Shown here: positions 1,864 through 11,320 of the stretch, one piece after another
Position numbering within the stretch: position 1 is the first letter of the stretch
Layout of the letters: the number at the start of each line of letters is the position of its first letter
UHGV virus genome: UHGV-0170512
Source of the DNA: a virus
Strand: one strand, 5' to 3'
DNA: 11,320 nucleotides
The notes under the pieces: model-generated
Told to the model about the DNA's origin: nothing
Seen by the model: only the letters and a program-made list of their open reading frames with translations
Database searches by the model: none
Position numbers and translations under genes: made by a program

Positions 1864-2388
1864 TCAATTAATCAGCAGTTCAGGCTGTGTCACCTGCAAG
1901 ATGTATTCATGCTCGACAGCCAGGACACGCTTCTCTTTCTTCCGTTCGTTCATTAACCGACTGCCGATCGTACCTTTCAGCTTTGAGCGTGTTTCTTTGG
2001 TGGCGTAGCGGTGCTGCATTTCTTCGCCAATTGCCATGCGGCGGCTCAGTTGCTCTGCCATCCAGTTGAATGCTGCGATATAGCTCTCCTTGATTGCCGC
2101 AGCAGCTTTCCCGGTGAACCCCATCACAACCATGATCCAGCCATCTTTCGTCAGGCTGTACATCGGGCGAACCTTGCCCTGCTCATCGATATAATCAGCC
2201 GACGCAAAATTGCGTTGGCTAAACTCACGCGAGCAATCAGCCTTAACCTGCTCGATTTTCCTGAGAACATCACCGTGTCGCTTGCCGAAGTACTTGGCAA
2301 TTTTTCTGGATGTGGTAACGACCTCTCCGTTTTTGGCTTGCACCATTTCTCGGAAGTCGAAGGCTGGAATAACTGAATGATTATTCAT
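1864..2388 (-). CDS. rha: Rha-family phage regulatory protein
   Basis: Track ORF 1864..2424 (GTG start); I prefer the internal ATG at 2388-2386 (MNNHSVIPAFDF...). Contains TTSRKIAKYFGKRHGDVLRKIEQ, the signature region of the Phage_pRha family as I recall it. The start choice between 2388 and 2424 is unresolved. Confidence 0.65.
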   Translation of the reverse strand: MNNHSVIPAFDFREMVQAKNGEVVTTSRKIAKYFGKRHGDVLRKIEQVKADCSREFSQRNFASADYIDEQGKVRPMYSLTKDGWIMVVMGFTGKAAAAIKESYIAAFNWMAEQLSRRMAIGEEMQHRYATKETRSKLKGTIGSRLMNERKKEKRVLAVEHEYILQVTQPELLIN

Positions 2389-2442
2389 AGCGTCTTTACC
2401 TTTTAGAAAGTGAGCCTGTCTCACAGAAAAGCCGCCCGAGAG

Positions 2443-2454
2443 AGGTCGCCACCT
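2443..2454 (-). other. cosN-like cohesive-end site (lambda-type)
   Basis: Minus strand reads CGTTATAGGTGGCGACCTCTCTCGGGCGGCTTTTC; lambda cos as I recall it reads CGTTACGGGGCGGCGACCTCGCGGGTTTTCGC. Shared CGTTA, GGCGACCTC and a CGGG..TTTTC tail; the 12-nt core AGGTGGCGACCT matches GGGCGGCGACCT at 10 of 12 positions. Lies between the lysis and head genes as in lambda. Confidence 0.45.
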
Positions 2455-2528
2455 ATAACGGCATTTCTCAGGCTCGCTTACTGAAAGGCTCTCGTTAATA
2501 TGCGCGTGAGATGCGCTGTGAAATTCAG

Positions 2529-2556
2529 ATATAAAAAGCCCCGCGAATGCGAGGCT
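2529..2556 (-). terminator. Candidate Rho-independent terminator downstream of Rz
   Basis: Imperfect GC hairpin (plus strand GCCCCGCGAATGCGAGGC, 2538-2555) followed on the minus strand by TTTTTAT (plus 2531-2537). Confidence 0.35.
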
Positions 2557-2729
2557 AAATCCTGGTATTTGTAATGACTGGCTCTTATTTCAACGCAGCC
2601 CCTTACCGCGCGCCAGATGCTCAACTTCAAGCATCAGCAATGAGATGTTTAATCTGGATTCACTCCAGAAGTGATCACCACCCTGTCTACAGAGCCAGAT
2701 GTGAAGGATGATGAGTAAAATTATCGCTA

Positions 2730-3212
2730 TCATCGAAGGCATTGCGTCCTGATATATTCCTGAAGCGTTCTCAGTGCTGTCTGGTCTCTGATGATTCCGT
2801 CCCGGATACCGAGAACGTTTCGTCCAGCAACTGGAGAGAGTTCGACGGTGGCATCATTGCCCATGCCGGAGGCGCTGGAGGTTTCGGCTGAGGATGGCAC
2901 AGGGCATTTTCCTTTGACGAGCACCCGACCACCATTATCAAGCTTGCGCCGAAGAGCATCATTTTCAGCTTTCGCATCAGCCAACTCCTTCGTGTATTTA
3001 GCATCGAGTACATCAGCAGCACGCTGGCGTTGCTGCATGTCAGTAATGGTGGCGGTCGCCTGCTTCAGCTCACTGACTTTTTTATCACGCTGTTCTTTGT
3101 AGGCGATGGCGTTATCACGGTAATGATTGACCGCCCACGACAGGCAGACGATGATGCAAATAACCAGAGCATAAATAATCGCGGCGACTCTGCTCACTGA
3201 TCTATCCCCCAA
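2730..3212 (-). CDS. Rz: Rz i-spanin (inner-membrane spanin subunit)
   Basis: 160-aa ORF; N-terminal segment [38 protein letters not shown] closely parallels lambda Rz ([39 protein letters not shown]), with coiled-coil periplasmic domain and C-terminal Cys. The true start may be a few codons inside the track ORF; it overlaps the endolysin 3' end. Confidence 0.85.
2771..2977 (-). CDS. Rz1: Rz1 o-spanin lipoprotein, embedded in the +1 frame of Rz
   Basis: Track ORF 2771..3022 trimmed to the internal start [22 protein letters not shown]; lipobox-like VVGC followed by a proline-rich segment ([11 protein letters not shown]) parallels lambda Rz1 (MLKLKMML...VVVGC...PPPPPAW). Lies entirely inside Rz. 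Confidence 0.75.
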
Positions 3213-3727
3213 CAGGCTAATGCGCTTTCCTGGTCACGACGAATAACCTGTCCATAGCAGTTATTTGAACGTATGCGGCAATCGCGCCCACCATCTTTTA
3301 TCCACCAGCGAATCGCCTCGCATGCACTCTTACGATCACCGGCATTCAGCCGCTTATAAAACGTCGACGGGAAACACTTACCGGGGCCAATGTTATAGGG
3401 ACAAAATGACGCTATACCCGCTTTCTGTGGTTCGGTCAGTGGTACTTTAATATTGCGCTCCACCCATGCCAGCGCCTTATCACGTTCAATAGCGTTAACC
3501 TGGTCGCATTTTTCCTTCGACAGCTTCATTCCCGGTATGACGGGCTTACCATCCACCATTGTGGCACCACGACAGATGGTCCATATACCGGAACCATCGC
3601 GGTATGCCGTAGTGTGGTTACCCTCTTTTTCATCCAGAAACTGGTCAAGTATTTGAGGAGCAGACGAGCCTGCAGCAATCAGCGCCAGAACGGCAGCCGA
3701 CAGGCCGTATCTGATTTTTGCGTTCAT
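3194..3727 (-). CDS. SAR endolysin (phage lysozyme, T4/P21 R-type, GH24) with N-terminal signal-anchor-release domain
   Basis: 177 aa. N-terminal hydrophobic, Gly/Ala-rich segment [16 protein letters not shown], then catalytic-triad spacing E-x8-D-x5-T in [16 protein letters not shown], parallel to the P21 R lysozyme. Sits in a lysis cassette next to a pinholin. Confidence 0.85.
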
Positions 3728-3790
3728 GGATATTTATCAGGATTTATCGGTTTCTGCCCACGGACAGGTTTATCTGTTCCGGTCAGTGAC

Positions 3791-4141
3791 TTAAGGTTGT
3801 GATTCCGGAGGAGTCTTCAGAGAACCAGTAATTCTTCCTGGTAGCTTTCCTTTGTAGGTTATCCACACATTCTGCGCATCTAAAATTACGGGGCGCTTTT
3901 CCGGCGACTGCTCATCCCCTTCACATAACCCGGCAGCAACATCCAGGAAGACCTGTCTGATGCTCCTTCTGGCTGCTGCCTCATAAAACTCCAGCGCGGC
4001 ACCTTCAACACGGTCCAGCGAGATGTCCAGGTCAAAAATTTCACCGTCAAAGCGTTTTTTGTCCCGTAACGCTACAGTTACCGTAACTTTATTCTCAAAA
4101 TTGCGGATCCCTTTCACAATCAGTTCATAGTTTTGAGTCAT
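3791..4141 (-). CDS. Hypothetical protein between holin and endolysin (YdfR/DUF1327-like by position)
   Basis: 116-aa ORF with good SD (GGAGAG, 8 nt before the ATG at 4141-4139) lying inside the 3' end of the holin gene; 4-nt gap after the holin stop. A small gene (ydfR) occupies the same holin-endolysin slot in the K-12 Qin prophage as I recall; sequence-level family membership is not verified. Confidence 0.55.
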   Translation of the reverse strand: MTQNYELIVKGIRNFENKVTVTVALRDKKRFDGEIFDLDISLDRVEGAALEFYEAAARRSIRQVFLDVAAGLCEGDEQSPEKRPVILDAQNVWITYKGKLPGRITGSLKTPPESQP

Positions 4142-4145
4142 TGAA

Positions 4146-4361
4146 TTACTCTCCCCGTGCCGCCTTACGACGGTCCTCTCTGATTTTGAAATACAGGTTA
4201 GTCAGATATGTCAGCAGCCCAAACAGCAGACTTCCCAGCACGCCTATTGCCGCCCACTGAGACGGGGAAACCCTGTCCAGCAACTGCAGGAACCAGTAGC
4301 CCGTTCCCACCGCTGACGTGGTGTATGACACACCTGTTGTGATTTTTTCCATCTGGTCCAT
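4146..4361 (-). CDS. Pinholin, phage 21 S21-like (class II holin) with dual-start motif
   Basis: Track ORF 4146..4466 trimmed to the internal start [10 protein letters not shown]. The C-terminal two thirds, [51 protein letters not shown], are near-identical to P21 S21 as I recall it; 71 aa. Met1 and Met4 (MDQM) resemble the S21 antiholin/holin dual start. Confidence 0.85.
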
Positions 4362-4510
4362 ACCCCGTCTCCCGTTATCCGGAAGCTGACAACAATAAAA
4401 AAGCCACCAGTTAACTACTGATGGCTCTGATAACTCATGCAAGCGTCTCAGACGACCCACTGACACTACCGGTGAGTTTAACGATACCTTCCATTTGACT
4501 GGCTCACTTT

Positions 4511-4869
4511 TTATGATGATGCCGGTGCATTTATCTCCAGCGCCAGACTTTCTATCTCAACGCCATACGTTGCATTTTTGGTAATATCCGTCAGCGTCAG
4601 TGCATTTAGTCCCACTGCCAGACTGTCTTTTATGGCCTGGAATGCCGGGCCAGTACGATGACGTAGTATCACTCCGGCTCAGTTGCACCACTGACCACCA
4701 CATCACCTTCTGCTGCAATCGCCTGCATCAGGGTATAAGGGGTTATGGCCACCGGACTACCAAACGGCTGCCAGCCCTCTTTCAGTTTATGTGTCAGCTT
4801 TTCCGCAAGATCTGACGGCGGCGCCGCCCTGACAACATCATAGTGTTTAAATGCCATGGTTCTTTCCAC
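4511..4869 (-). pseudogene. DUF1737-like gene (NanS-p N-terminal-domain-like), apparently frameshifted/truncated
   Basis: Track ORF 4669..4869 (66 aa, MERTMAFKHYDVVRAAPPSDLAEKL...) stops at 4669-4671; a second stop-free frame of 55 codons ([55 protein letters not shown]) opens just after a stop at 4679-4681 and runs to 4511, overlapping the first frame in 4669-4678. Consistent with a single indel. The first Met may be the third residue (MAFKHYDVV). Confidence 0.35.
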
Positions 4870-5117
4870 TATCTGAAAAATAATTCTTTAAAATACCTGA
4901 CATGTAATACAGAAAAAACACAAAACTATACCTTAAATAAAAACCTGATTATCAAGCAGATATGCATGGATAAACTACAAGACGAGATATAAACCACCCT
5001 GCATTTAAATAAACAATAAACAACATCAGAAAAATAATTCTGCTCTATGGTTTACATTCAAAAATATCATTTATACTTTTCAGGACATCACCAGCAAGGC
5101 ATAAACAAGGAAACCAA

Positions 5118-5453
5118 ATGAAGTGGATTGTGATTGATACAGTTATCCAGCCATCATGCGGAATATCTTTTTCAGTCATATGGAGTAAAATAAAATTAAT
5201 AATCTGGTATCAATCGGATGCTTTCTTACCTCCTGAAAGTATATTTACACTGACTCACACAGGCATCATGCTCAATAACAAAGTGCTACCTGTAACCATT
5301 TACAACGTAGTACCATTCAATAAAACATTCTGGAATTTAATCAAAAACAGCCAGGAATGCCCTACAAATACAGATAACGTATTGAATGAATGCTTTAATA
5401 ACCGTTGCACTCTGCAAATATGTCCTTATGGACTAAAACAACAAAGTCCATAA
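5118..5453 (+). CDS. Hypothetical 111-aa protein, AT-rich convergent moron ORF
   Basis: Only credible plus-strand ORF in the window. Strong SD AAGGAA 7 nt upstream of the ATG at 5118, preceded by a ~250 bp very AT-rich stretch (4870-5117). Visibly lower GC than the phage backbone; 5 Cys; no recognisable family. Confidence 0.45.
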
Positions 5454-5487
5454 GGAGTTTACTCACATCTGACAAAATCAATATAAA

Positions 5488-5509
5488 CAGCCCCTCCGGA
5501 GAGGGGCTG
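5488..5509 (-). terminator. GC hairpin, likely Rho-independent terminator for minus-strand transcription (possibly also stops the convergent plus-strand ORF)
   Basis: CAGCCCCTC-CGGA-GAGGGGCTG, 9-bp perfect stem; on the minus strand it is followed by TTTATATTGATTTTG. On the plus strand it sits 35 nt after the 5118..5453 stop but has no U-tract. Confidence 0.4.
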
Positions 5510-5900
5510 GAGAGTGGCGCTATGTGCCATTGCATGGTGCCGGGTGCCTCCCGGTGAATTCAGTACCAGCACCTGAATCCGCGATTATCCCATATACCTA
5601 CTCGCTGATTGCCCCTCCGCACAGGGGGATTCACCATGCCAGTTTCTTTTAACAAACTCCCCGCAAACCAGACAACAGTCAACCGCCTGAATTGTGAAGT
5701 ATTTAAAAATTTCTCCCGCTAACTGATACCCGGCTAACAGTCTGGCGTTTTCTTTTTCAGCAACGGAAAAGCAACAACCACCACACCTGCCACCAGCACA
5801 CCGTCAGCCAGCACTGACATTATCCGGCTGCTGCAATGCCATTCACAAAAACAGTAAGCAATCACTTTTTACCGTAACAGGTGATAATCCAGATATGTAT

Positions 5901-6227
5901 CTACCCCAGATGAGTAATCCGAAGTTCATCCATACCACAGGTCCTGGCTATTCTGTTGTACTCCTGAACAAGAGCAAATAATTCTGAATTAGCAACCATG
6001 AACTCATCGCTAACCCTCTGTATAGCATCACTATTCAGAATAATAACGTCTCTTCCCGAAAGACGATCAGGAGTACAAAACAAAACTGTCAAACGGCTGA
6101 AGGCCTTTGCTCGTGCTGCATTGACTATATCAATACGCTGCCTAAGGATGAAACACCCCGACGCCTCATCAATATTCACTCTACCCACACCATATGAATG
6201 ATAAATATTTAATGCTGAAAAAACCAT
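5901..6227 (-). CDS. Hypothetical protein (108 aa from the internal ATG); doubtful
   Basis: Track ORF 5901..6254 starts at TTG; the first ATG is at 6227-6225 (MVFSALNIYH...) with a weak SD. No recognisable motifs; immediately downstream of the tRNA cluster. Confidence 0.25.
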   Translation of the reverse strand: MVFSALNIYHSYGVGRVNIDEASGCFILRQRIDIVNAARAKAFSRLTVLFCTPDRLSGRDVIILNSDAIQRVSDEFMVANSELFALVQEYNRIARTCGMDELRITHLG

Positions 6228-6364
6228 TAGACCGTATAACAAACACTCAATCAATACTTAACAGAACTTTTATTTTTGACAAACATATAATATTTTCAAC
6301 AATATCCTGAGCCAGGTATATTCCAGTATAAGGCTCTGCCGGAAGGAATCTGGAAGAATGAATA

Positions 6365-6441
6365 TGGCGCGTTGTACTGGATTCGAACCACTGACCGATT
6401 GCTTAGAAGGCAATTGCTCTGTCCTGCTGAGCTAACAACGC
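6365..6441 (-). tRNA. tRNA-Arg (anticodon UCU)
   Basis: Minus strand GCGTTGTTAGCTCAGCAGGACAGAGCAATTGCCTTCTAAGCAATCGGTCAGTGGTTCGAATCCAGTACAACGCGCCA: 7-bp acceptor stem, D arm GCTC/GAGC, anticodon loop CTTCTAA, T loop TTCGAAT, encoded CCA. One G:G mismatch in the T stem. Confidence 0.8.
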
Positions 6442-6454
6442 AGAATACCGATAA

Positions 6455-6531
6455 TGGACCACCATCGGGGACCCGAACTCCGCGCAACCAGCTTCGAAAG
6501 CTGGCGCTCTTTCCTGATGAGCTAATGGCGG
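6455..6531 (-). tRNA. tRNA-Arg (anticodon UCG)
   Basis: Minus strand CCGCCATTAGCTCATCAGGAAAGAGCGCCAGCTTTCGAAGCTGGTTGCGCGGAGTTCGGGTCCCCGATGGTGGTCCA: acceptor stem with one G:U pair, perfect anticodon stem CCAGC/GCTGG, loop TTTCGAA, encoded CCA. Non-canonical T loop TTCGGGT (G at position 58) and one A:C mismatch in the T stem. Confidence 0.7.
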
Positions 6532-6538
6532 TATGTGA

Positions 6539-6614
6539 TGGTGGCCCTTGCTGGATTTGAACCAGCGACCTGGCGATTATGAGTCGCTCGCTCTCACCAC
6601 TGAGCTAAAGGGCC
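6539..6614 (-). tRNA. tRNA with CAU anticodon (Ile2-type, ileX-like, or Met)
   Basis: Minus strand GGCCCTTTAGCTCAGTGGTGAGAGCGAGCGACTCATAATCGCCAGGTCGCTGGTTCAAATCCAGCAAGGGCCACCA: perfect acceptor and T stems, anticodon loop CTCATAA; closely resembles the E. coli ileX tRNA as I recall it. Confidence 0.85.
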
Positions 6615-6736
6615 ATATGCGGAATAATACTTATGCCAGTTTAGCTCTGCAATACCCTACCCTGATTAAATCCTGCATATTGGCCTACACATGATAAAAG
6701 AATCTGAGCGGTCAACAGAAAGTTACTCAGGCAATA

Positions 6737-7456
6737 TTAACGAACTCTGACTACATTAATTTCAAAGTCATCAATCTGCCCGCTATTAAGTATAACGAAT
6801 GCAGAACTCCCATTACTGTACGATTTCGATAAAACCAGACGATCATCATAGCGTGCAAGAACGTAATACCAAGTATTCTCATAGTGGATCGTCTGATATT
6901 CCCTCTTAAACTGGGGTTTATACCAACCGGCAATAAGAGAGAATGTCCAGAAATAAATCATGAATCCAGCCATAATAAACTCAATTCGGTGATGGCGAAT
7001 AAAAGACACTTCCGAAAAACATTTGACTGAAATAAGTCTTCTTCCTGACCTGACAAAAAGCGTAATTGTAAAGGCAGCAATAACACAAAAAAACAGCACA
7101 TCTGGCTCAACGTGCTGATGAATTACCGAAAACTCCAGAACAGGCGGAATAAAAAGCAGCAATATTGCCAGAAAAAGTCTGATAAAACTCAAATTCTGTA
7201 TATTGTTTTTTTGTTTTATGCCTAAAAAGAAAACAATACCTACTCCCCATCCAGTAAGGAATATAACGATAACGCTCACAGCATAAAACAAACTTCGGGC
7301 CACATCATCAACGCCAACCCCGACGATCCACCATGGAAAGCCATAGTAAAAGGAAGTCCCCCATCCATAGAAATAAGCGCTTCCCCATCCAAGACAGCCC
7401 ATATAAGCAATAAAAAGTGAAGAGTTCCTCAGCAGAGTGCTGTCATCCATACCCAT
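6737..7456 (-). CDS. Uncharacterised polytopic membrane protein (about 5 predicted TM helices plus ~60-aa C-terminal soluble tail)
   Basis: 239-aa ORF, first gene after the tR'-like terminator. Successive hydrophobic, aromatic-rich segments (FIAYMGCLGWGSAYFYGWG..., LFYAVSVIVIFLTGWGVGIVFFLGI, FIRLFLAILLLFIPPVLEF, VLFFCVIAAFTITLFV, IMAGFMIYFWTFSLIAGWY). Visibly AT-rich. Likely start is the second ATG (7450), with GAGAG 6 nt upstream. Confidence 0.6.
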   Translation of the reverse strand: MGMDDSTLLRNSSLFIAYMGCLGWGSAYFYGWGTSFYYGFPWWIVGVGVDDVARSLFYAVSVIVIFLTGWGVGIVFFLGIKQKNNIQNLSFIRLFLAILLLFIPPVLEFSVIHQHVEPDVLFFCVIAAFTITLFVRSGRRLISVKCFSEVSFIRHHRIEFIMAGFMIYFWTFSLIAGWYKPQFKREYQTIHYENTWYYVLARYDDRLVLSKSYSNGSSAFVILNSGQIDDFEINVVRVR

Positions 7457-7591
7457 CTCTCTAACAATTTTAAAACATCAACTCATCTTACATAACAAAG
7501 GAGATTCCATGCAGTCAAGAGACTTCAGAGCAGGAGAAACTCATTGCGCAATCGCCATCACGTTTAACGTTATGCACCGCTTTCCAGATAT

Positions 7592-7616
7592 AAAAAACCC
7601 GCTCGATGGCGGGCTG
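7592..7616 (-). terminator. tR'-like Rho-independent terminator downstream of Q
   Basis: Minus strand AGCCCGC-CATCGA-GCGGG followed by TTTTTTATATC; about 80-100 nt downstream of the Q stop, as expected for the short pR' transcript of lambdoid phages. Confidence 0.55.
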
Positions 7617-7662
7617 TAAAAATCCTTCTAACGTCAGGCATAAAACGCCCATCGTTAGAGCA

Positions 7663-7690
7663 AATTTACCACAGATTCGGGAAAAATCAA
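7663..7690 (-). promoter_or_regulatory. Candidate late promoter pR' (with presumed qut region)
   Basis: Minus strand TTGATT-16 nt-TAAATT with TGG immediately upstream of the -10 (extended -10-like), directly after the Q stop codon (7696). Confidence 0.35.
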
Positions 7691-7695
7691 CAACA

Positions 7696-8517
7696 CTATC
7701 GCGTTACCCTCTTTAACTGCCGCTCCGCCCATGCCTCTTCAATGTCAAACCGAACCACCAACGTATCGTAAAAGCGTTTCACTGATTTTTTCCACGTATC
7801 AAGCGTGATAGCACTCGTCACTTTGCGTATGGCATTAAATGCCTCCGTTGATGGTAGTCTTTCATAGCCCCGACCGCCACAACGCTGGCAGTTCCTGATT
7901 ACAGGCATACCCCGTTTTTCCGACTCTTCACGATGAATGGCAACACCACGCCCACGGCAGTCTTTACAGGCAGTGGAAATCTCCCCCTTCCCTTTACATT
8001 CAGGACAAGAAACTTTCACCACCTCCCGGATTTTTTTCCATTCTTCCCAGTAAGACGGATACACACCTTTCGTACACTTTGCCCATACCGGCGGCTTACC
8101 ATCCGGATACTGGACCTTGTTTGTAAAAACTACGCTTTCAATAAATTTTTCCCCATAGCAACAAGGGCACTGCTTTTTACTCGCTGCGCTGCGGGCATAA
8201 TCCTCAAAAGCGTACGAAGCCATAATGCGCATCACTACCGGTTTTATTTCTGCCGGAAGTTTTCTTAACGCCGCCACGCGATCGCACTGACTTAATGCAT
8301 AATCTGCCAGTAATTCTGTTGCCCGCGCCCTGTCATTCATACTAATACCCATTTTCCCCAGGAACGCAGAAAATCCCATCTCAGCCCGGTTTTGTGTCAT
8401 ACCCTGCGCAGCCATCACATCAGTGATGCTCAGCGCATCTTTTGACGTCGAGACGGATGCATCAGTCAGGCCTGGCGATTTTGGGGAATAGTATTTCGGT
8501 AAATCTTCCAGTCTCAT
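7696..8517 (-). CDS. Q-like late antiterminator (QuuQ-type, zinc-finger Cys pairs)
   Basis: 273-aa ORF with several CxxC pairs (CPCC, CPEC, CKDC, CQRC); positioned after rusA and before a promoter-terminator pair and the lysis genes, the canonical Q position. ATG overlaps the rusA stop (ATGA). Confidence 0.6.
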   Translation of the reverse strand: MRLEDLPKYYSPKSPGLTDASVSTSKDALSITDVMAAQGMTQNRAEMGFSAFLGKMGISMNDRARATELLADYALSQCDRVAALRKLPAEIKPVVMRIMASYAFEDYARSAASKKQCPCCYGEKFIESVVFTNKVQYPDGKPPVWAKCTKGVYPSYWEEWKKIREVVKVSCPECKGKGEISTACKDCRGRGVAIHREESEKRGMPVIRNCQRCGGRGYERLPSTEAFNAIRKVTSAITLDTWKKSVKRFYDTLVVRFDIEEAWAERQLKRVTR

Positions 8518-8888
8518 TTTTGGACCTGCCCGTCATGCATTATTTCGTAAATCTTCACGCCCAACCGACCACCAGGAACGAGCTGACCGCGCACAATATT
8601 GATTTCATCAAACTGCTCGTCGTCTATAAGTAGTCCGGCATGCGTCAGCGCATCCAGTGGTGCTTTCAGGATATTGTCCAGGTCACGACGGCGCTTATCC
8701 GGTGGCTCTGCAATCACCTTTATCGCCAGCCTTCCGGACAGGCTTAATTTCAGCTGCTGCTGGCGAACAATAAGCGCCACAGCCCGGCGATAACGCTTTC
8801 CCTCCTCCGAGATAAAATATGTGCTGCCACGGCGTCGCCAGTAAGTGTTCACCGTCGGCGGGTAAGGTAAAACCAAATCTATGAGCAT
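8514..8888 (-). CDS. rusA: RusA Holliday-junction resolvase
   Basis: 124 aa; PPTVNTYWRR... and DKRRRDLDNILKAPLDALTHAGLLIDDEQ parallel E. coli RusA (PPSNNRYYRH..., [30 protein letters not shown]). Strong SD (AGAGGTGA) upstream. Confidence 0.85.
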   Translation of the reverse strand: MLIDLVLPYPPTVNTYWRRRGSTYFISEEGKRYRRAVALIVRQQQLKLSLSGRLAIKVIAEPPDKRRRDLDNILKAPLDALTHAGLLIDDEQFDEINIVRGQLVPGGRLGVKIYEIMHDGQVQK

Positions 8889-8900
8889 CAGTCACCTCTT

Positions 8901-9950
8901 TTACCCAAGCACGCCGGTTGCAAAGGCGTGATCAAGAAAACGAAAAATTAAATCAACCTGAGAACCATGCTTTTCTTCGAACGCCAGCGGATCCGCATGA
9001 AGCTCGTTGTGATGCTCCCGACACAGCGGTAGCGTGAAAATATCGTGGGCCTTTGTTCCCATCCCTCCCTGACCGTGACCAATCAGGTGATGGGGATCGT
9101 CGGCTGGCTGACCACAACACGCACACGGCTGTGTCTTCACCCAGCGCGTATATTTCTCATTTACCCAACGGCGACGTTTAGGTCGCCTCATGAAAGATTC
9201 CGGAGAGTCCGGATCAACGGCAATGCTGACCACCGCCTTTTCCAGTGGTGGGTTCTGTTGCTGGTGGGCGTGAAGCAGCGGCGTAAGATTTTTTGTGCGC
9301 TGTTTCAGTATGCTGGTGGCGGTCTGCTCTCCCGGTACGATGTCGCTTTCGCGGTACACCGCGCGGATTTTTTCCGCACGTAACCCCAGAGAACGACGTA
9401 ATACTGCCTCCGGAAGCGCGTCCGCCACTTGATTGCAGACCGCCCACCAGGATAATTCAGCCAGCGATAACTCCCGCTCCTGCGTGCCATTCATTGCATG
9501 GCGTATGACGTCAATCATCCATGCTGCCAGGTTTTGTTGAGCAAGTTGCTCAAGTGATTCGGATGTCTGGTCACGCAGCTGGTTATCGCAGTGCCAGCAC
9601 AACACCATCGCGCCGGTGCCGTAACGATGTATGACGGTTTCACTGTGATGATAGTCACCATGAGGCCACTGGCAGGATTTGACATGACGCAACAGCCAGT
9701 CAGACAGTGCACCAGCGCCGCCAGCAGCACGAATCACACGCTCATTGCTGAAAAACCGCAGTAATGATTTATCCTCCGCCAGCGGCTGGCGAACGGCAGG
9801 GACGATGCCGGACGGCAGACCACGCATGCTTTTCGGTTCCGGCTCCACCAGCACTCGAGGGTTATGGAATACCTGCATGGATTCACGGCCTGGTTTAAGG
9901 ACCACCAGCCCAAGTTCCGGTACCGGAACAGGTCGAAGTAATACCCGCAC
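8901..9950 (-). CDS. DUF968 family protein (YdfU-like) with C-terminal Cys/His (HNH-like) motif
   Basis: 349-aa ORF, GTG start with strong SD GGAGGT 5 nt upstream. C-terminal CACCGQPADDPHHLIGHG...HDIFTLPLCREHHNELH. Same length and genomic context as YdfU of the K-12 Qin prophage as I recall. Confidence 0.65.
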   Translation of the reverse strand: MRVLLRPVPVPELGLVVLKPGRESMQVFHNPRVLVEPEPKSMRGLPSGIVPAVRQPLAEDKSLLRFFSNERVIRAAGGAGALSDWLLRHVKSCQWPHGDYHHSETVIHRYGTGAMVLCWHCDNQLRDQTSESLEQLAQQNLAAWMIDVIRHAMNGTQERELSLAELSWWAVCNQVADALPEAVLRRSLGLRAEKIRAVYRESDIVPGEQTATSILKQRTKNLTPLLHAHQQQNPPLEKAVVSIAVDPDSPESFMRRPKRRRWVNEKYTRWVKTQPCACCGQPADDPHHLIGHGQGGMGTKAHDIFTLPLCREHHNELHADPLAFEEKHGSQVDLIFRFLDHAFATGVLG

Positions 9951-9951
9951 G

Positions 9952-10230
9952 TTACCTCCAGATGCGTTGCTGGAATGTGCGGGACGGACGCGGTGGGCGT
10001 TCGGAGTAAGGCAATCTGACTGAGATTATCCAGTGACGGTAGTCGAGGCTAAGGGCTTTTTTAACCTCGTATCCGCGCCTGCGGTAACACTGAATTATCC
10101 ATTCAGCCTGCTCTTCAGTGCATGGAGGATGCTGGAACCAGTCTGATTTGAATGCGTGAAAACGCCGTCCGCACCTGCTGGCAAAGACGGCAGAATCATT
10201 AGAATTGTGTAATTTGGTATCGTGCGCCAT
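9952..10230 (-). CDS. Hypothetical protein, rem-like by position (between hok and the DUF968 gene)
   Basis: Track ORF 9952..10359 trimmed to the internal ATG at 10230 because a terminator hairpin (10301-10329) lies inside the longer ORF; 92 aa. Start and identity uncertain. Confidence 0.4.
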   Translation of the reverse strand: MAHDTKLHNSNDSAVFASRCGRRFHAFKSDWFQHPPCTEEQAEWIIQCYRRRGYEVKKALSLDYRHWIISVRLPYSERPPRPSRTFQQRIWR

Positions 10231-10300
10231 CGGTTGTCTCTGCTGGCGCAGCAGGTGCCAGTTGTTCAGGCTGGCGTGCGAATTGTAAACCAGAATGCCA

Positions 10301-10329
10301 GGAAAAAACAAAACCCGCCGAAGCGGGTT
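10301..10329 (-). terminator. Rho-independent terminator downstream of hok
   Basis: Minus strand AACCCGC-TTCG-GCGGGTT followed by TTGTTTTTTCC; about 70 nt after the hok stop. Confidence 0.55.
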
Positions 10330-10397
10330 AAGTGCGGGTGCGTTGAGGATGCCTGACACATCAGAGGTGGCGAGGGATTTCTCCCCCGCCTGGTCTC

Positions 10398-10553
10398 TTA
10401 CTCCTCAGGTTCGTAAGCTGTGAAGACAGCGACCTCCGTCTGGCCGGTTCGGATTCGTACCTCGCAGAGGTCTTTCCTCGTTACCAGTGCCGTCACTATG
10501 ACGGTTAAACAGATGACGATCAGGGCGATTAACATCGCCTTTTGCTGCTTCAT
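10398..10553 (-). CDS. hok: Hok-family type I toxin (HokD/RelF-like), 51 aa
   Basis: Hand-translated, below the ORF-track size cutoff: MKQQKAMLIALIVICLTVIVTALVTRKDLCEVRIRTGQTEVAVFTAYEPEE. Single TM segment and Hok/Gef signature; SD AGGAGAAG 6 nt upstream of the ATG. Confidence 0.85.
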   Translation of the reverse strand: MKQQKAMLIALIVICLTVIVTALVTRKDLCEVRIRTGQTEVAVFTAYEPEE

Positions 10554-10789
10554 AGCCTGCTTCTCCTTGACCTTTCGGTCCGTAAGAGGCTAATCTCTAT
10601 GTGTCGCATAGATATGGCCTCAGATTAATGTTAAGCGTCTTGCAGGACGCGTAATGTTAACTGGGGCTTTTCTCTATCTGCCTTTTGGTGTTCATGCCTG
10701 AGGCAGATAGCCTCAAGCACCCGCAGCAATTCTACTTAACTCACGTCACCTCGCCAATATGAAATCAATCAGAAAGGTGATCCATAAAA

Positions 10790-11320
10790 TCACTCCTTCT
10801 CTTCTTTTCCGTAGTGGAGTTGGCCAATTTTGATAAGAGGGCGCCCCTGAGATTTGCGGTGTAGATTGGTATCGCGCAGAGAATACACACAGCCACAATA
10901 TTCCTGCTGATAGAATTTTTCGCGCTTGCTGATTTCAATCATACGGGACGAGCCGCCCTGCTTGCGCCAGTTATAATCCCAGTACACCATACCCGGATAA
11001 TGCGCAACAGCTCGCCGCCCACACTCGTTAACCTGCTGCATATTTTTCCAGCGTGAAATGCCCAGTGAACTGCTGATCACACTGAAACCATTTTCAGCAG
11101 CGTACAACGCTGTCCGCTCAAAACGCATGTCAAAACACATGGTACAACGGATCCCCCTCTCAGGCTCCCATTCCATTCCTTTGGCACGTTCAAACCAGTT
11201 GTCGGTGTCGTAATCAGCATCGATAAACGGCACGCCGTGTTGTTCAGCAAAGCGAATATTTTCATCCTTACGAATTAAATACTCTTTCTGAGGATGAATG
11301 TTCGGGTTGTAGAAAAAGAT
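10790..11320 (-). CDS. Cys-motif protein, tentatively QueH/DUF208-like (epoxyqueuosine reductase family); 5' end beyond window
   Basis: Track ORF 10790..11233 (GTG) continues stop-free in frame to the window edge (..[42 protein letters not shown]..). Motifs FYNPNIHP, C-x2-C (CTMC) and YCGCVYS match my recollection of DUF208/QueH; the family call is not verified. Confidence 0.5.

Follow-up and report, generated by a model that had tools for sequence, protein, structure and literature searches.

AT-rich islands between the Q antiterminator and holin genes of a lambdoid prophage, read as separately acquired accessory cassettes

Do the AT-rich patches among the late genes of a prophage mark DNA of separate origin, or do they follow from what that DNA encodes? 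The question is raised by the virus genome UHGV-0170512, of which a stretch of 11,320 nucleotides (hereafter the window) was analysed. An original prediction, made from the sequence alone, described three markedly AT-rich intervals (4870-5460, 6255-6360 and 6640-7500; here islands 1 to 3) and proposed that a plus-strand open reading frame (ORF) and a membrane-protein ORF were acquired independently, as cargo flanking a tRNA block. From its ORFs, tRNAs and domains, the window was identified as the minus-strand-encoded late region, with regulatory and lysis genes, of an Escherichia coli lambdoid prophage, and the plus-strand ORF is iraL, which encodes an RssB anti-adaptor of the IraM family. The AT-rich patches are very probably separately acquired cassettes of the moron type, located in the hotspot between the antiterminator gene Q and the holin gene S and exchanged independently among prophages. 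The phenomenon is ordinary, well-documented phage mosaicism, the current understanding of which is unchanged by these results, and the iraL unit is already characterised.

Composition, junctions and distribution of the cassettes

The GC content of the window outside 4870-7500 is 0.508, and all three islands deviate significantly from it, so the predicted AT-richness is borne out. Island 1 has a GC content of 0.321 (empirical z -7.4 against equal-length windows taken outside the region; binomial z -9.1) and island 3 of 0.389 (empirical z -5.4; binomial z -7.0), with no outside window as low in either case. Island 2 has a GC content of 0.340 (empirical z -3.3; binomial z -3.5; 0.7% of outside windows as low), a depression that is real, though short and modestly significant. 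In 200-bp sliding windows, GC content is 0.30-0.365 over 4801-5500, 0.345-0.35 over 6101-6400 and 0.37-0.40 over 6601-7300, while the flanking lysis, terminase and nin genes range from approximately 0.47 to 0.60. Greedy binary segmentation returns one segment only, the low-GC block being central, and optimal partitioning was used instead; with the latter, change points fall at 4830/4831 and 5490/5491 (GC 0.324 in between), within about 40 bp of the predicted limits of island 1, and there is also a broader low-GC stretch from 5491 to approximately 7700-7840.

Codon usage follows the same pattern. The GC content of third codon positions (GC3) is 0.34 in iraL, 0.35 in the phrog_2873 ORF and 0.38 in the membrane-protein ORF, compared to 0.47-0.65 in 13 backbone ORFs; thus, the bias is more than an amino-acid effect. 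The codon ATA accounts for 31% of the Ile codons of the cargo genes versus 19%, and AGA for 27% of the Arg codons versus 11%. This rare-codon enrichment is what AT-richness alone predicts, and co-adaptation of the prophage tRNAs to the cargo is not claimed. The AT-richness marks the cassettes as compositionally distinct accessory DNA and names no particular donor.

The cargo resolves into at least three units (Table 1): (i) the iraL cassette, corresponding to island 1, (ii) a cassette in the position of the Shiga toxin (Stx) genes of related phages, termed the stx-slot cassette, and (iii) the membrane cassette, corresponding to island 3. Compared to a backbone of approximately 0.51, the GC contents of these cassettes are depressed with binomial z of -9.3, -4.8 and -6.9, respectively. 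The two units proposed originally are both real; island 2, however, belongs to the stx-slot cassette, as the intergenic 5' leader between tRNA-Arg(TCT) and the phrog_2873 ORF. Similarly, the membrane cassette adjoins the tRNA-Ile gene of the tRNA block as had been proposed, whereas the iraL island does not, the STnc100 small RNA (sRNA) and the stx-slot cassette lying in between.

The limits of the cassettes were mapped as homology blocks, by BLAST and alignments, across ten loci that include those of JJ1886, IHE3034, CFT073 and 23CRST014, the phages JLK-2012, phi296 and 434, an O157 Stx2c prophage and the K-12 chromosome. The left junction of the iraL cassette is the start codon of nanS-p (CAT, 4855-4857 on the plus strand), up to which JLK-2012, phi296 and phage 434 are collinear with the window and after which they diverge at once. 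The right junction is the hairpin at 5488-5509, where phi296 and the O157 Stx2c prophage rejoin the window, with JLK-2012 rejoining approximately 30 bp further. Between these points, JLK-2012 has an unrelated 171 bp, phi296 an unrelated 231 bp and the O157 Stx2c prophage, after stx2B, a 75%-identical iraM-like allele. The iraL cassette is absent from IHE3034, which has the membrane cassette (100% identical). In the slot of the second cassette, phi296 has a stretch of 57 bp, the O157 Stx2c prophage has stx2AB and JLK-2012 has tciA/tciB. On its right side, the membrane cassette ends where homology to all four comparators resumes, exactly at ATAAAAAACCCGC, the T-tract of the tR'-like terminator; on its left side, homology is back at or just beyond the tRNA-Ile gene. 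The slot is empty in 23CRST014, where the terminator and tRNA-Ile are approximately 37 bp apart, and holds a DNA methyltransferase module in JJ1886 and IS200C in CFT073, which matches the window over 3802-6629 and again from 7590. Compositional edges thereby coincide with presence/absence junctions, and the locus serves as a worked example in which change points of composition predict module junctions to tens of bases. The junctions sit on the punctuation of the operon, namely the T-tract of a terminator, a start codon, the terminator of an sRNA and a tRNA gene.

The cassettes also differ in their distribution among 5,426 complete E. coli genomes. At a coverage of at least 80%, the iraL cassette is present in 1,431 genomes (about one quarter); the membrane cassette is present in 154, and both in one place in none (0/5,426; no place covers 80% of window positions 4400-8000). 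The tR'/tRNA-Ile junction is empty in 1,228 genomes, and 645 have a junction without iraL, of the JLK-2012 type. All 28 contigs that were read with an identical membrane protein share the IHE3034 arrangement, and iraL, DUF3927 and the DUF1737 remnant are found between the membrane gene and the holin gene in none of the 28. The junctions and the lack of co-occurrence support the proposal that the plus-strand ORF and the membrane protein arrived independently, as distinct cargo units.

The two sides of the window have different nearest relatives. Positions 4090-6614 are 100% identical to CFT073 and positions 6539-11320 are 98.45% identical to IHE3034, the overlap being the tRNA-Ile gene, which by alignment is identical in four prophages with differing neighbours. 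The window is a recombinant, CFT073-type to the left of tRNA-Ile and IHE3034-type to the right, with the crossover inside the tRNA-Ile gene, a combination that none of the 5,426 complete E. coli genomes shows. In the classical view, conserved linker sequences mediate module exchange, and an identical tRNA-Ile gene at the crossover fits this view. Very probably, three discrete accessory cassettes, each delimited by punctuation that the late operon already had, were gained, lost and exchanged independently via recombination among prophages, the exchange point here being the tRNA-Ile gene. The low GC content, synonymous sites included, is typical of accessory DNA that travels on mobile elements.

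Explanations for the low GC content

The AT-richness could instead be a by-product of function in a region that evolved in place, through hydrophobic codons (TTT, ATT and TAT) and promoter or curved DNA. Phe, Ile, Tyr and Leu are abundant in the membrane protein, the GC content of second codon positions (GC2) of its ORF is 0.36 and close to that of several backbone genes, and approximately 260 bp of island 1 (4858-5117) together with all of island 2 are non-coding leader with promoter-like hexamers (in island 2, TTGACA-16-AACAAT on the plus strand and TTGAAA-16-AAAAAT on the minus strand). Yet GC3 is also low in the cargo genes, and IraL, a soluble protein, is encoded with first-position GC content (GC1), GC2 and GC3 all of approximately 0.35. 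The islands are, moreover, polymorphic for presence and absence, their junctions are sharp and fall on the compositional edges, and in hundreds of genomes the same backbone has the slots empty or otherwise filled. An origin in place is largely refuted by these data and by GC3, and is very unlikely. Acquisition of the whole low-GC stretch (approximately 4830-7700) in one event, as a single foreign block, is even less probable and can nearly be dismissed. High-penalty segmentation does merge 4831-7700 (GC 0.41), and the entire stretch falls within one inter-gene gap, from Q to the holin gene, of an IHE3034-type phage; however, the GC-normal tRNA (0.52) and sRNA (0.54) blocks interrupt it, its nearest relatives differ between the left (CFT073, 100%) and the right (IHE3034, 98.5%), and the cassettes have very different frequencies with no genome carrying both in one place.

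A further account refines the reading as mobile cassettes and is a realistic, if tentative, possibility: the cassettes move, but their AT-richness carries no information on a foreign donor and is kept within mobile elements of the Enterobacteriaceae, e.g., by selection for H-NS binding, which leaves accessory genes silent or tunable, or by mutational bias of accessory DNA. All detectable homologues of IraL/IraM, PF27470 (the family of the membrane protein) and phrog_2873 are enterobacterial, and these families remain AT-rich across all contexts examined, hosts of approximately 54% GC among them. AT-richness is intrinsic to the PF27470 and iraM/iraL families wherever they are found, with GC contents of 0.33-0.41 for PF27470 genes in Citrobacter, Salmonella-plasmid, Klebsiella and phage 434 contexts and of 0.34 for K-12 iraM. 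The iraM gene of K-12 is repressed by H-NS. A similar argument is made for another un-ameliorated prophage moron of CFT073 (PMC3573123). The GC contents of 0.32-0.40 would be compatible with H-NS occupancy of the islands. On the other side, log-phase transcription of iraL is active in CFT073 (PMC4045071), and the gene, thus, is not fully silenced.

Several points weigh against separately acquired, moron-type cassettes. The low GC content is due in part to intergenic and regulatory DNA (4858-5117 and 6255-6360) and in part to a Phe/Ile/Tyr-rich membrane protein, such that composition alone overstates foreignness. Presence/absence data alone cannot separate insertion from deletion or replacement, and the genome counts rest on BLAST coverage thresholds and not on a curated pan-genome. 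Homologues of IraL/IraM, PF27470 and phrog_2873 were not found outside the Enterobacteriaceae, and a donor lineage was not identified. The hairpin at 5488-5509, a candidate terminator of iraL, has no T-tract on the plus strand. A scan for consensus sigma-70 promoters found none in 7457-7589 (a non-canonical promoter would escape the scan), and a terminator scan found none between the stop of the membrane ORF (6737) and the tRNA (6614); the membrane gene may be an accessory gene of the late operon and not a moron expressed in the lysogen.

The cassettes compared to known systems

The window IraL is 100% identical to the IraL protein of CFT073 and 62% identical to the K-12 IraM. It matches the IraM sequence of PDB entry 8TWD by phmmer (E 9e-32), a family of solved structure. 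The stretch of complete DNA identity to CFT073 includes the iraL promoter, and the CFT073 sequence obtained by 5' rapid amplification of cDNA ends (5'RACE) matches window positions 5085-5116. In CFT073, iraL has its own sigma-70 promoter with a transcription start site mapped by 5'RACE and is transcribed in log phase; the identical gene product binds RssB and stabilises RpoS in log phase (PMC4045071). The gene is located on the potB island of CFT073, was acquired horizontally and is over-represented in uropathogenic E. coli and in Shigella (PMC4045071). In the window, iraL is antisense to the late operon and, with a promoter of its own directed against late transcription, would be expressed from the repressed prophage.

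Compared to the iraL unit of the CFT073 phi-potB prophage (Hryckowian et al. 2014, PMC4045071), the window has an identical protein and identical DNA over 4090-6614, including the transcription start site; the difference lies not in the gene but in the slot beside tR', which holds IS200C there and the membrane cassette here. The horizontal acquisition of iraL was noted in that study, while the limits and junctions of the cassette come from the present work. Thus, iraL, which raises RpoS in log phase, is now placed on an exactly delimited cassette of 631 bp. An occurrence of this cassette beside a tail gene (hit H115) was considered as cassette movement and rejected, the prophage being deleted and decayed. 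At locus positions 4001-5450 of NZ_CP185938.1, a large deletion in a decayed relative brings tail gene L against the iraL cassette. The same relative has two tandem STnc100-like copies, the second of which is matched by window positions 5486-5833 (77%).

The K-12 iraM gene (b1160), beside the cryptic prophage e14, encodes a homologous anti-adaptor and similarly lies in an AT-rich islet with prophage-type genes; by contrast, its DNA can be aligned with iraL in the coding region only (approximately 71%), and the flanks differ. The two genes also differ in regulation, as iraM answers Mg2+ starvation via PhoP whereas iraL is expressed in log phase (PMC4045071). By eye, a search upstream of iraL for the PhoP box (T/G)GTTTA-N5-(T/G)GTTTA revealed one half-site only (GGTTTA, 5049-5054), consistent with this difference. 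Unlike IraM, IraL contacts RssB's N-terminal domain only. The K-12 gene is found immediately beyond the annotated limit of e14, within a 1.75-kb islet (locus positions 6579-8328, GC 0.34) with ycgX (DUF1398, a lambdoid-prophage family). Because iraM shares this AT-rich islet with ycgX beside the e14 boundary, the chromosomal iraM may also be a prophage remnant.

The moron concept for lambdoid phages reportedly goes back to Juhala et al. and Hendrix et al. in 2000. The two AT-rich cargo genes noticed originally correspond to this concept to different degrees. Morons are defined as extra DNA relative to close relatives, with a GC content unlike that of the neighbours and with their own promoter and terminator (PMC3594210). 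Like lambdoid morons, the cassettes are variably present at one inter-gene site and deviate in GC content, and the iraL unit in addition has its own promoter, the activity of which is known from the literature, and is positioned for independence from the operon. Unlike morons, the iraL unit shares its hairpin with the convergent sRNA and has no clear terminator of its own, whereas the membrane cassette has neither a recognisable promoter nor a recognisable terminator and probably rides the late transcript. With no such signals of its own found, the membrane gene would most likely come first on the late transcript that Q antiterminates.

The membrane protein matches phrog_1521 over residues 19-239 (E 6.5e-86), and all 96 of its homologues in a precomputed table carry PF27470. 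Homologues are found in Enterobacteriaceae only, and of 50,697 phage records those of phage 434 and phage 2B8 alone contain the family. Phage 434 (OL657226; PMC9119081) is similar to the window in having Q, a terminator, a PF27470 protein, TciB/DUF3927, a nanS-type esterase and lysis genes, with the PF27470 protein (CPT_434_68, 57% identical) in the same slot directly after tR'. Phage 434 differs in having no tRNA block, no iraL and another type of Q, and the DNA of its membrane gene is 74% identical over part of its length only. Outside prophages, in plasmid and island settings among others, PF27470 homologues are found on the Citrobacter rodentium chromosome, a Salmonella IncFII contig and a Klebsiella contig. 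On the Klebsiella contig, the gene is near IS3 and genes for an AraC-family regulator, DsbA and an STb enterotoxin-like protein. In C. rodentium (locus positions 3863-5717), the PF27470 gene and lpxR (lipid A deacylase) lie side by side in divergent orientation, in an AT-rich islet with core genes on either side, and in phage 434 (locus positions 2011-5062) lpxR is located on the other side of Q from the PF27470 gene. This adjacency in two unrelated contexts could reflect a functional link.

An AlphaFold 2 model of the membrane protein (predicted local distance difference test score 66; predicted template modelling score 0.47) suggests, at low confidence, approximately five long helices, read as transmembrane by eye and without transmembrane prediction, and a C-terminal beta domain. 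A Foldseek search of the model against the PDB gave nothing with an E value below 0.5, and a profile search of PDB sequences gave no match. A PADLOC match to AbiC, of 14.8 bits only, was rejected as noise. The family name TfpB is not interpretable, as its uses in the literature are unrelated (chemistry, anaesthesia and an Acinetobacter PilB-like ATPase). That the PF27470 protein is an envelope-acting factor (e.g., in superinfection exclusion or in outer-membrane or lipid A remodelling), encoded on a single-gene unit that moves among prophages, plasmids and islands and that lambdoid phages have captured right after tR', at the head of the Q-dependent late transcript, is a doubtful proposal. The gene nonetheless places a conserved membrane protein of a known kind in a privileged position of the late operon.

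The region between Q and S resembles that of Stx-converting phages, in which Q, pR'/tR', the ileZ-argN-argO tRNAs, stxAB, nanS-p and S follow one another. The order of Q, terminator, tRNA(CAT)-Arg-Arg, variable slot, sRNA, nanS-p and holin gene is shared, with nanS-p and the STnc100-type sRNA equally placed here. By contrast, the window, a non-Stx relative, has no stx, the stx slot holding the phrog_2873 ORF and DUF3927; its nanS-p is internally deleted, and its Q is of a different type (273 aa, zinc-finger). The nanS-p gene has lost approximately 1.49 kb compared to JJ1886 at a 16-bp repeated segment or overlap (4638-4653), as derived from BLAST high-scoring segment pairs at 3802-4653 and 4638-6653; CFT073 shares the deletion. 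Homologues of the phrog_2873 ORF (53-98% identity) are found in E. coli and Shigella only, and the ORF is left unannotated by the PGAP pipeline in CFT073 and JJ1886. An assignment of the ORF at 5901-6254 as a TciA homologue was rejected, as BLASTP against the TciA of JLK-2012 gave no alignment. A plus-strand ORF at 5524-5652 overlaps STnc100, is a partial hypothetical protein in RefSeq genomes and is probably spurious.

Layout of the late region

In the minus-strand order, the window runs from Q through pR'/tR', cargo, tRNAs, cargo, sRNA, cargo and the nanS-p remnant to the holin, lysozyme, Rz and terminase genes, with YdfR among the lysis-side genes (holin, YdfR, lysozyme, Rz, terminase) and RusA, DUF968 and hok/sok upstream of Q. 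By megablast, the sequence falls among prophages of B2 and extraintestinal pathogenic E. coli. Homologues of Q are annotated as antitermination protein in IHE3034, CFT073 and JJ1886, and the Q gene forms the upstream end of the cargo hotspot. The candidate late promoter pR' was read from the sequence and is below threshold in a consensus promoter scan; its elements are identical in five prophages that differ in the adjacent 3' ends of Q. The stem of the tR'-like terminator shows compensatory changes across prophages, and an equivalent terminator is annotated in phage 434. Together, the candidate pR' and the tR' hairpin, elements conserved across prophages, would give a short leader RNA of approximately 65 nt.

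Table 1. Positions of the cassettes and neighbouring features in the 11,320-nucleotide window
Feature	Position	Strand	Details
nanS-p (SASA / 9-O-acetyl sialate esterase) remnant	4362-4857	-	Pfam DUF1737 N-terminal piece 4669-4857 (63 aa) and C-terminal fragment; GC 0.50
iraL cassette (cassette 1, island 1)	4858-5488	+	631 bp; GC 0.323
iraL promoter region and published transcription start	5051-5085	+	-10 TATACT at 5072-5077; +1 sequence ACATCACCAGCAAGG from 5085
iraL, 111 aa, RssB anti-adaptor of IraM family	5118-5453	+	NCBIfam PRK09919 (NF007393), 162 bits versus cutoff 121
STnc100-family prophage sRNA	5479-5668	-	Rfam RF02076, full-length, 132.4 bits versus gathering 47, E 1.2e-29
GC-rich hairpin	5488-5509	both	Terminates STnc100 on -, the only strand with a T-tract; 35 nt past iraL stop on +
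STnc100 sRNA block	5489-5706	-	GC 0.54
Stx-slot cassette (cassette 2)	5707-6356	-	GC 0.414; 0.388 over 5834-6356
DUF3927 / TciB-like small membrane protein	5734-5865	-	Pfam PF13064, E 1.7e-27; phrog_1470
phrog_2873 ORF, 108 aa	5901-6227	-	phrog_2873, E 3.8e-69
tRNA block	6357-6629	-	GC 0.52
tRNA-Arg(TCT)	6365-6441	-	ARAGORN; Rfam tRNA
tRNA-Arg(TCG)	6455-6531	-	ARAGORN; Rfam tRNA
tRNA, CAT anticodon (annotated tRNA-Ile, ileZ-type)	6539-6614	-	ARAGORN
Membrane cassette (cassette 3, island 3)	6630-7589	-	~960 bp; GC 0.398
Membrane ORF, 239 aa (237 aa from ATG at 7450)	6737-7456	-	phrog_1521 / PF27470 'TfpB'
tR'-like intrinsic terminator	7596-7615, T-tract to ~7590	-	Terminator scan
Candidate late promoter pR'	7663-7690	-	TTGATT (7690-7685), 16-nt spacer, extended -10 TGgTAAATT (7671-7663)
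Q antiterminator gene, 273 aa	7696-8517	-	Pfam Antiterm PF03589, E 4.9e-52

The tRNA trio (CAT, Arg-TCG and Arg-TCT) is 92.8-94.2% identical to the corresponding blocks of phi296 and the O157 Stx2c prophage. The tRNA-Arg(TCG) gene and the tRNA-Lys(TTT) gene of IHE3034 (locus positions 7847-7923) have near-identical acceptor, D and T arms and differ in their anticodon arms, which suggests that an anticodon arm may have been replaced within a paralogous prophage tRNA. In 23CRST014, the position of tRNA-Arg(TCG) is occupied by a degenerate, non-tRNA version.

A further AT-rich patch (1201-1400, GC 0.37) is intergenic, upstream of a DUF1441-type small terminase gene (758-1249). It has inverted TCGAA repeats and may be a cos or terminase-binding region; a search for the lambda cosN gave no significant match. 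At the other end of the window, an isrK-like match at 10308-10389 is sub-threshold (27 bits), and a hokD-type toxin ORF (10398-10553, minus strand) is accompanied by a sok antisense RNA at 10551-10722 (Rfam RF01794, 108 bits).

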